A stretch of DNA of 64,000 bases from Escherichia coli O157:H7. GTDB taxonomy: Bacteria; Pseudomonadota; Gammaproteobacteria; Enterobacterales; Enterobacteriaceae. Under the pieces are notes generated by a model, which was not told where the DNA came from, did not search any database, and was given only the letters and a program-made list of their open reading frames with translations. Location: the NCBI RefSeq assembly GCF_013167455.1, contig NZ_CP038328.1. One strand, given 5' to 3'. Shown in pieces: positions 62,489-63,654 of this stretch; the first letter of the stretch is position 1, and each line of letters starts with the position of its first letter. The position numbers and the translations under genes are program-made.

Positions 62489-62989
62489 ATGCCAAAACTC
62501 CCCGCACCACTGCGTAAAAAGCTGATTGCCCTTGTTCTGGCCGGTGCCGGGACGTTCACGATTGCCACGCATTACACCGGTTACTGGGAAGGGAAAGAAA
62601 ACTCCACGTATATCGATCCCACCGGTACACCCACCATCTGTTACGGCCATACCGGCCCGGATGTGAAACCGGGTATGACCCTGACAGATGAAGAATGCCT
62701 GGAACTACTGGAAAAGGACATGAAATGGGCCTTTGCGGCCATTGATCGGCGTGTTCAGGTGCCGCTTACCCGTGGTCAGACGGTGGCGCTGGCTTCGTGG
62801 ATCTTCTGGGCCGGTGAAACGAACTTTCGCAACTCCACGCTTCTGCGCCTGATCAATGCCGGGCAGATGCCCGCGTCCTGTAAGCAGTATATCCGCTGGA
62901 TTTATTCAAAGGGGGTGAAACTCCCCGGCCTTGAGGCCCGCCGTTCGGCGGATGAATGGTTATGTCGCTACGACTTGCCGAAAGTCTGA
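62489..62989 (+). CDS. endolysin, T4-lysozyme-like (GH24) with N-terminal SAR-type signal anchor
   Basis: 166 aa; Gly/Ala-rich TM LIALVLAGAGTFTIATHY; catalytic-type motif WEGKENSTYIDPTGTPTICYGHTG. Confidence 0.85.
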   Translation: MPKLPAPLRKKLIALVLAGAGTFTIATHYTGYWEGKENSTYIDPTGTPTICYGHTGPDVKPGMTLTDEECLELLEKDMKWAFAAIDRRVQVPLTRGQTVALASWIFWAGETNFRNSTLLRLINAGQMPASCKQYIRWIYSKGVKLPGLEARRSADEWLCRYDLPKV

Positions 62990-63062
62990 ACCGCTTCTGG
63001 CGACCGCTCATGATAGCGCTGCTGTGTGCGGTACTGCTGTTACGGGGTGTCCTGTGGCTGCG

Positions 63063-63452
63063 GTGAATAATGCCTTACCGGCCCTGATTGCCGGGGCGTG
63101 CATGGCGGCGCTGGGGATTATCGCTGTACTGGTTGCCGCTATATGGGGAATGCACCAGAAGACGCAGCGCCTTGAAGACAATAATCAGGTGCTTGTGCGT
63201 GAGCGGGATGAGGCGCGTCAGGTGCTGGCAAATCAGCAGCACACCCTGCAACTCATTTCACAAATCAGTGAGGCGGCCACGAATGAAAAACAACAGAACA
63301 TTCAGCACAGCGAGGGGCAGCAGAGCGTTGTCCGCCGGTCGCTGGCGGCAGTGCCTGCGGCCTCTGCCCCTGTTCCTGATGATGTGGCTGATCGGGTGCG
63401 CCGGGCCGTCTGTGAAATACGTGCCTGTGAAGCCGGTGCCGATCCCCGCTGA
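63063..63452 (+). CDS. i-spanin (Rz-like)
   Basis: N-terminal TM ALPALIAGACMAALGIIAVLVAAIWG then coiled-coil-like periplasmic region; start uncertain (GTG 63063 or ATG ~63100). Confidence 0.5.
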   Translation: MNNALPALIAGACMAALGIIAVLVAAIWGMHQKTQRLEDNNQVLVRERDEARQVLANQQHTLQLISQISEAATNEKQQNIQHSEGQQSVVRRSLAAVPAASAPVPDDVADRVRRAVCEIRACEAGADPR

Positions 63453-63654
63453 ATGGCTGGCTGACTGCCTGGTCCCTCCTGCGCCGGAGCCGTTCACGTT
63501 TGGGGCATCGGTCACTTACAACCTGCAACTGCTGGCGGTGATCAAGAACTGCAACGTGGACAAGGCCAGTATTCGTCGTCTGGAGGCGCGGCGACAACAT
63601 GAATTTACTGATATGGCCGGAACGCCTGCTGTTCCGGCAGGAAAGACGAAGTAA
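63282..63654 (+). CDS. o-spanin (Rz1-like lipoprotein), overlapping i-spanin in another frame
   Basis: lipobox LIGC after hydrophobic stretch; Pro-rich mature region PVKPVPIPAEW...PPAPEP. Confidence 0.55.

Follow-up and report, generated by a model that had tools for sequence, protein, structure and literature searches.

The final 2 kb of the 64,000-nucleotide stretch of Escherichia coli O157:H7 DNA considered here (contig NZ_CP038328.1; the whole stretch is called the window, and coordinates are its own) are the beginning of the late region of a Mu-like E. coli prophage. As judged from the sequence, the prophage is of Sp18 type, and its late lysis cassette takes up the window end. We consider it probable that this is a Mu-type lysis cassette with one more real gene, an open reading frame (ORF) of 34 codons at 62962-63066 that would be translated into an inner-membrane micro-protein. 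The small ORF lies between a lysozyme of the signal-arrest-release (SAR) type and the inner-membrane spanin (i-spanin), overlapping the 3' end of the first by 28 nt and the 5' end of the second by 13 nt, and it spans the whole 64-nt gap between them. The features concerned, with the evidence for each, are these.

62489..62989, + strand: SAR-type lysozyme (endolysin), 166 aa (Pfam Phage_lysozyme, E = 6.3e-37)
62962..63066, + strand: small ORF, 34 codons, unannotated, conserved (conservation, ratio of nonsynonymous to synonymous differences (pN/pS), apolar core)
63044..63047, + strand: Shine-Dalgarno (SD)-like GGGG of the i-spanin, within the small-ORF codons R-G (16S duplex energy, conservation)
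63054..63452, + strand: i-spanin, 132 aa (PHROG 214, Rz-like spanin, E = 7.7e-33; homology to Mu gp23)
63283..63654, + strand: precursor of the outer-membrane spanin (o-spanin), 123 aa (Pfam LysC PF23793, E = 2.4e-16; PHROG 3001, E = 8e-42)

The 34-codon frame, its start, and its relatives

A sequence-only reading of the window had noted an 18-codon hydrophobic ORF, MIALLCAVLLLRGVLWLR, at 63010-63066, after the lysozyme stop (62987-62989). A hydrophobic ORF is encoded there, but it probably has 34 codons and begins at ATG 62962, giving the product MSLRLAESLNRFWRPLMIALLCAVLLLRGVLWLR, in which a basic N-terminal part is followed by a 12-residue hydrophobic core. The frame is open from 62956, with in-frame ATG codons at 62956, 62962, and 63010. 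By comparison of sequences, the most likely start is ATG 62962, a position occupied by ATG in 17 of 18 compared sequences and by GTG in the remaining one. This ATG is built from the lysozyme codons Leu-Cys (xTA TGy), and the Leu codon contributing its A is the rare TTA or CTA in 17/18 sequences, the third base having changed once only. ATG 63010 was rejected as a universal start, the position being Thr or Ala in four lineages (L040, L060/L122, L156, and L061/L154). The consensus of the products reads M-x-[LIV]-R-L, about seven variable residues, [YFH]-W-R-P, the 12-residue apolar core, and R-G-V-L-W-L-x before the stop, which is positioned 10 nt beyond the i-spanin start. AlphaFold2, with an 11-sequence alignment, models a single helix over residues 3-33 with a mean predicted local distance difference test (pLDDT) score of 79, and three Arg precede the apolar helix. 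A programmed -1 frameshift, whether from lysozyme to small ORF or from small ORF to i-spanin, was considered and set aside, with no conserved slippery heptamer seen on reading and no dedicated scan made.

By itself an 18-codon ORF is at chance level, and it is conservation among relatives that lifts this one above chance. The frame is intact in 19 distinct E. coli haplotypes (86-100% DNA identity), the lone exception being a fused variant, L013. More distant relatives were gathered by i-spanin searches and the contigs these led to, by a lysozyme-based scan of IMG/VR, and by a scan of one genome per species. All lineages whose lysozyme ends in ...ADEWLC(R/T)(Y/F)DLP carry the small ORF; E. coli, Citrobacter braakii, Edwardsiella anguillarum, and several further lineages are among them, with i-spanins down to 38% identity. 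Absence or a shifted frame in relatives had been named beforehand as what would count against the ORF, and it is in frame in all members of this lysozyme subtype. A distant version (profile E = 2e-4), in which the hydrophobicity is kept, is found where the lysozyme is only 49% identical (L061/L154).

The small ORF is missing in Mu, SfV, and Klebsiella phage Mulock, and in the Mu-like prophage lineages L037 and L038, and in these the i-spanin start overlaps the lysozyme stop. In Mu that overlap is 17 nt with no ORF between the two genes, as opposed to the 64-nt gap with its small ORF in the window. No family match to the small ORF was found in Pfam, PHROGs, or NCBIfam; its exact protein sequence was not found among about 15 billion predicted proteins, where it has never been called as a gene; and literature searches gave no relevant description of a small ORF between a SAR endolysin and an i-spanin.

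Two sequences are listed here as observations in their own right. L013 (IMGVR_UViG_2526164665_000023) has, at about 2417-2422 (corresponding to window 62981-62984), an extra A in the A run of CCGAAAG, just ahead of the lysozyme stop. With this one added nucleotide, the lysozyme reads through in frame into the small ORF (...DLPKSLNRFWRPLMIALLC...), and the change may be either a sequencing error in a homopolymer or a naturally occurring fusion. Citrobacter rodentium has a recorded 132-aa i-spanin 86% identical to that of the window, known from the protein record alone.

Selection on the frame and the role of its product

The 17 codons at 62992-63042 are clear of both the lysozyme and the i-spanin initiation region. 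Over 17 sequences, pairwise pN/pS there comes to 0.59 for the small-ORF frame, as compared with 1.57 for that of the i-spanin and 1.00 for the remaining frame. The value of 0.59 is on par with the 0.60 of the genuine i-spanin in the compared lineages; the lysozyme has 0.27 among relatives. Among close relatives, 11/20 changes over 63010-63062 are synonymous in the small-ORF frame versus 3/20 in the i-spanin frame. In the 12-residue core, none of 204 residues is polar (D, E, K, R, H, N, or Q), with many positions varying and the replacements running among L, V, I, M, A, F, S, T, and G. A pN/pS of 0.59 is reached by 75/3000 column shuffles and the apolar core is matched by 0/3000, counts which, since the compared sequences are related, overstate significance and are not true probabilities. 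From these patterns, the small ORF is a conserved, never-annotated frame under purifying selection, and presumably a translated gene.

A different account would leave the small ORF untranslated and assign its conservation to nucleotide-level constraint on the lysozyme 3' end and the i-spanin initiation region, together with limited divergence. About half of the ORF does overlap constrained sequence, the SD matches at its starts are weak, and its absence from all gene calls and protein families would be expected. Also, pS in the free region is 0.38, less than the 0.60 of the lysozyme and the 0.585 of the i-spanin, which hints at constraint on the nucleotides. We nonetheless hold this account to be quite improbable, as the 17 unconstrained codons vary in a frame-specific way, the encoded residues stay hydrophobic as the DNA diverges, even out to the L061/L154 version, the spacer is fixed at 64 nt, and the lysozyme retains the rare Leu codon that creates the ATG. 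Nor is there a conserved RNA structure to point to. The RNAalifold consensus fold has -2.1 kcal/mol and 4 pairs, with no structure shared among the lineages, and conserved RNA structure was rejected as a cause of the conservation, the hairpin of the window being lineage-specific.

Several points besides the relatedness of the sequences weigh against a translated membrane peptide. The first nine codons are constrained by the lysozyme frame, and the last seven (R-G-V-L-W-L-x) coincide with the ribosome-binding site (RBS) and start codon of the i-spanin, so their invariance may be nucleotide-level constraint; with both ends constrained otherwise, the independent evidence rests on about 17 codons. 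The pN/pS of 0.59 is only moderate. The i-spanin frame is stop-free upstream of 63054 too, in all lineages. The SD energy is moderate at ATG 62962 (-5.0 kcal/mol) and an SD is absent at ATG 63010 (-1.9 kcal/mol). With about 12-13 residues before Arg28, the apolar stretch is short for spanning a membrane. Finally, Mu, SfV, Mulock, and two Mu-like prophage lineages do without the small ORF.

In the mechanism we propose, the lysozyme would be exported with an uncleaved, weakly hydrophobic N-terminal anchor, as a SAR endolysin, and, going by homology, it would be freed from the inner membrane with the aid of the downstream DUF2730 releasin and not of a holin. The i-spanin, anchored in the inner membrane, and the o-spanin, an outer-membrane lipoprotein, would form a complex that destroys the outer membrane, a role shown for the Mu homologs gp23/gp23.1 (PMC9239132). 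Translation would pass from lysozyme to small ORF to i-spanin, the small ORF filling the gap and containing the i-spanin RBS and thereby linking the three in that order, and the o-spanin would initiate internally from its own SD (-7.7 kcal/mol).

The small ORF might be translated purely as a relay that opens the i-spanin RBS for re-initiation at 63054, with ribosomes that finish the lysozyme, or that initiate at 62962, translating through the gap and producing a functionless peptide. The small-ORF stop just past the i-spanin start and the i-spanin SD inside the ORF are what a coupling leader would have, and the geometry is the same in all lineages. The overlap of i-spanin start and lysozyme stop in the relatives lacking the small ORF also indicates that it sits where coupling would otherwise break. 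In the window sequence, a hairpin at 63032-63065 (fold z = -2.0) draws both the SD (63044-63046) and the start codon (63054-63056) of the i-spanin into pairing with flanking bases, as a relay could exploit, but it is not conserved in other lineages. For a relay an open frame would suffice, yet amino-acid changes are filtered here as they are in the i-spanin, and in the small-ORF frame only, and the core has kept out polar residues despite its many replacements. We regard a purely relaying role as rather unlikely, and the selected hydrophobicity favors a functional membrane peptide over it.

The peptide so favored is predicted to be a single-helix inner-membrane micro-protein, and the three Arg ahead of the apolar helix would direct an N-in insertion, as for the SAR anchor and that of the i-spanin. 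Our guess is that it acts on these like-oriented anchors of the endolysin or the i-spanin, tuning retention or release of the first or assisting the second. We put forward tentatively, and with some doubt, the possibility that the peptide, produced along with the SAR endolysin and the i-spanin, would represent a lysis protein of a new type, confined to one branch of holin-less Mu-like phages, and that it either helps to set the timing of lysis or serves i-spanin insertion or function. In that case, the timing role would be a minimal activity on the SAR anchor resembling that of a holin, an antiholin, or a partner of the releasin. The small ORF is itself a membrane-type ORF on the late transcript and next to a SAR endolysin, and it resembles holins, pinholins, and antiholins in specifying a small hydrophobic protein in a late lysis transcript. 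To our knowledge, the smallest holins are about twice the size of its 34-residue product. It is also unlike holins and pinholins in having one short hydrophobic helix, with about 12-13 apolar residues ahead of Arg28, and it resembles no family in sequence.

The i-spanin start and the overlapped spanin pair

The sequence-only reading had an i-spanin frame, with transmembrane segment and coiled coil, running from 62931. The frame is present, with an N-terminal transmembrane segment (about LPALIAGACMAALGIIAVLVAAIWGM; hydrophobic window 2.64 over residues 9-27) and a helical periplasmic domain, and it is mechanically open over 62931-63452, but 62931 merely marks where a start first becomes possible after a stop, and the gene starts at GTG 63054. 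Relatives have ATG or GTG at exactly this position, including those with i-spanins only 38-50% identical. In 12/12 lineages, the lysozyme stop and the i-spanin start are 64 nt apart with no indel, and the i-spanin itself varies in length over 125-132 aa. A CG(G/A)GG six to seven nt upstream of the start is conserved in all lineages, and the SD duplex of GTG 63054 with the 16S rRNA 3' end has -6.3 kcal/mol. From about 63063 onward, the variable sites of close relatives shift to the third codon positions of the i-spanin frame.

The stretch before 63054 might alternatively be taken as an N-terminal extension of the i-spanin, from GTG 63024 as in RefSeq or from ATG 62952, with the small ORF as its out-of-frame shadow. 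The i-spanin frame being open back to 62931, and open in all relatives, would allow this, and public annotations do use starts giving 142 and 166 aa, among five different ones in the databases that make the i-spanin 166, 142, 132, 129, or 116 aa long. The extension is nevertheless scarcely credible. Upstream of 63054, pN/pS in the i-spanin frame is 1.57-1.82, with only the 3/20 synonymous changes mentioned above; ATG 62952 is ACG in several lineages; GTG 63024 is missing in others and has no SD (+0.6 kcal/mol); and relatives carry ATG exactly at the 63054 position. Both longer forms were rejected on these grounds, pN/pS in their frame exceeding 1.5. The 5' end of the RefSeq/PGAP "endopeptidase" (GTG 63024), a start with neither conservation nor SD, is wrong.

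Some side observations concern the beginning of the i-spanin. Its N-terminus is the most divergent part of the cassette, with pN/pS 0.85 over the membrane segment. The E. coli-lineage protein (window 63054-63140) begins VAAVNNALP, with no basic residue ahead of the membrane segment, and the i-spanins of Citrobacter, Edwardsiella, and L156 have K or R at position 5.

The o-spanin frame is mechanically open over 63088-63654, with ATG at 63283. A spanin overlap of about 170 bp and an o-spanin extension of about 200 bp had been estimated earlier, and measurement gives 170 bp (63283-63452, in different frames) and 202 bp beyond the i-spanin stop. The o-spanin thus starts within the i-spanin in another frame and stops after it, an overlapped architecture, which is the commonest for two-component spanins (228/528; Kongari 2018, PMC6139136). 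The lipobox LIGC and the Pro-rich character described earlier are likewise borne out. L-I-G-C is encoded at 63388-63399, its Cys39 (63397-63399) follows a 38-residue lipoprotein signal, and 11 of the 85 residues of the mature part are Pro (13%). The +2 residue is Ala, with no inner-membrane retention residue, as predicted for an outer-membrane lipoprotein, and all relatives keep a basic n-region and a hydrophobic h-region. The o-spanin reaches 59.9 bits with the Pfam LysC model, whose cut-off is 27, and the alignment takes in positions 1-67 of the 69 in the profile.

Among the possible starts, only the ATG located 38 codons ahead of the Cys is conserved throughout the relatives, and SfV and Mulock keep it too. 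A shorter o-spanin of Rz1 type was tried from TTG 63328, ATG 63379/63382, and GTG 63412, and was rejected; none of these is conserved, and GTG 63412 lies 3' of the Cys. Homologs with another start, giving a conventional short Rz1, had been named as what would overturn the earlier view of the o-spanin, and the homologs share the start 38 codons before the Cys. The RefSeq "LysC" model (63412-63654) is wrong at its 5' end, as it begins five codons past the Cys and has neither the signal nor the lipidation site.

A comparison with Mu gp22 to gp25 had been proposed, and it finds the lysozyme and both spanins homologous, with an identical spanin layout. Mu gp23 and gp23.1 overlap by 140 nt with an extension of 202 nt, as compared with 170 and 202 in the window; gp23.1 is 42% identical to the window o-spanin over the mature part, and its signal peptide has 28 residues versus 38. 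Mu gp23.1 has been identified and genetically tested as a spanin (PMC9239132, Chamblee et al.). The o-spanins of SfV and Mulock align with that of the window from Met1 at 37-38% identity, and they share the 38-residue signal, the lipobox Cys, a C-N-x-D-K-A motif, and the overlapped architecture running past the i-spanin. The pair of P2 LysB/LysC type is overlapped as well, the window o-spanin passing the LysC model (PF23793).

Lambda Rz/Rz1 is similar in combining a helical protein anchored in the inner membrane with a Pro-rich outer-membrane lipoprotein, presumably for the same function. Lambda Rz1 is wholly inside Rz, and its mature form has 40 residues. The window o-spanin differs in running past the i-spanin stop, in its 85 mature residues, and in belonging to a different sequence family. 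The earlier remark that it is longer than a classical embedded Rz1 is correct as to length and does not hold as a peculiarity, this being the norm for the LysC-type family. The spanin pair is the ordinary overlapped arrangement of Mu and its relatives, and an embedded short Rz1-like gene is excluded.

Lysis without a holin in a Mu-like prophage

The lysozyme N-terminus is MPKLPAPLRKK, followed by the Gly/Ala-rich, weakly hydrophobic LIALVLAGAGTFTIA, with an anchor hydropathy of 2.16, which is weak for a transmembrane segment. Basic residues preceding the N-terminal anchor suggest a SAR anchor of the kind used in Mu-type lysis. Mu gp22 has the same plan, a basic N-terminus and then a Gly/Ala-rich anchor, and aligns with the window lysozyme from residue 1 at 39% identity (E = 9e-35). 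The genes bordering the cassette are these.

61992..62417, + strand: Mor/C-family late transcription activator (Pfam Mor PF08765, E = 2.8e-32; PHROG 532, late transcriptional activator; RefSeq)
63665..63892, + strand: TraR/DksA-type zinc-finger protein, 75 aa, at the position of Mu gp24 (Pfam zf-dskA_traR, E = 7.7e-12; RefSeq)
63873..64000, + strand: DUF2730 gene (Mu gp25 releasin family), 5' 42 codons, the window end cutting the gene (PHROG 736, E = 3.1e-7)

The Mor/C gene is immediately upstream of the lysis genes. The earlier observation that no separate holin gene precedes the SAR endolysin is correct, as between the end of Mor/C (62417) and the lysozyme (62489) there are only 71 nt of intergenic sequence, and the window ORFs include no membrane-protein ORF there. 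Mu has no holin either, and the release of its SAR endolysin needs gp25, the prototype of DUF2730, as shown experimentally (PMC9239132, Chamblee et al. 2022). By analogy, we infer that the missing holin of the window is accounted for by the Mu releasin system, through the DUF2730 gene at 63873. This gene is the fifth after the lysozyme with the small ORF counted. Its 42-aa fragment scores below the Pfam cut-off (E = 0.0052; 17.3 bits versus 24.9) because the window end truncates it, and the full-length 103-aa gene in a 100%-identical RefSeq record is annotated as "DUF2730 family protein." RefSeq labels on the identical DNA are, in order, lysozyme, "endopeptidase," LysC, TraR/DksA, and DUF2730. 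Mu has this same order downstream of its C/Mor activator, with the zinc-finger gene and then DUF2730 and no evident holin gene. Phages of the SfV/Mulock type differ from the window in having a holin gene upstream of the endolysin, an i-spanin start overlapping the endolysin stop, no small ORF, and no DUF2730 gene. Between the lysozyme start (62489) and the o-spanin end (63654), nothing resembling a terminator or a sigma-70 promoter was found, and this uninterrupted stretch fits a single late transcript.

E. coli chromosomes match the 1.6 kb at 62400-64000 with 100% identity, and the stretch is found in 230/5426 complete E. coli genomes, chiefly of Shiga-toxin-producing lineages. It is also in two Shiga toxin (Stx)-phage records annotated with "an inserted bacteriophage Mu-like phage," and these two records with their inserted Mu-like copy were the only matches when the phage collection was searched with the DNA and with the i-spanin protein. 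The records, LC727895.1 (L001) and LC727881.1, are Stx1a/Stx2c-converting phages, in which the copy of the lysis cassette is 99.3-99.4% identical; they carry it because a Mu-like phage has transposed into the Stx prophage. Sp18 of O157 Sakai, the type that the window element matches, has been judged intact (PMC2669165).

A few observations belong to the region before the late genes. Directly after the GemA-like gene (61413-61922) and before Mor/C, there is a terminator-like hairpin (AAATCCCGC...GCGGGATTT) with a T run at 61927-61958, which could divide the middle from the late transcription units. The block at 60000-61600 is AT-rich, with a GC content of 37-45% versus 55-61% in the late genes, and contains three hypothetical genes matching only PHROGs of unknown function. 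A 98-aa protein encoded at 61120-61416 (phrog_17269), upstream of gemA and outside the late operon, has a hydrophobic N-terminal segment (LFWCLYITSFFGAFVITRWL); its gene looks like accessory cargo.

The Mu paradigm already accounts for the spanin pair and for the absence of a holin, and the spanin part of this analysis amounts to an annotation correction. The part not already known is the small ORF, which makes the window a variant of the Mu-type lysis cassette, apparently carried by a large branch of Mu-like prophages with many Shiga-toxin producers among their hosts. At the least, the overlapping frames form what would be a clear three-gene translational relay. The small ORF may also be counted as another conserved small protein that standard gene callers have overlooked. 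With Mu as the paradigm of holin-less lysis, it is a candidate for an extra component in the timing of SAR-endolysin release.

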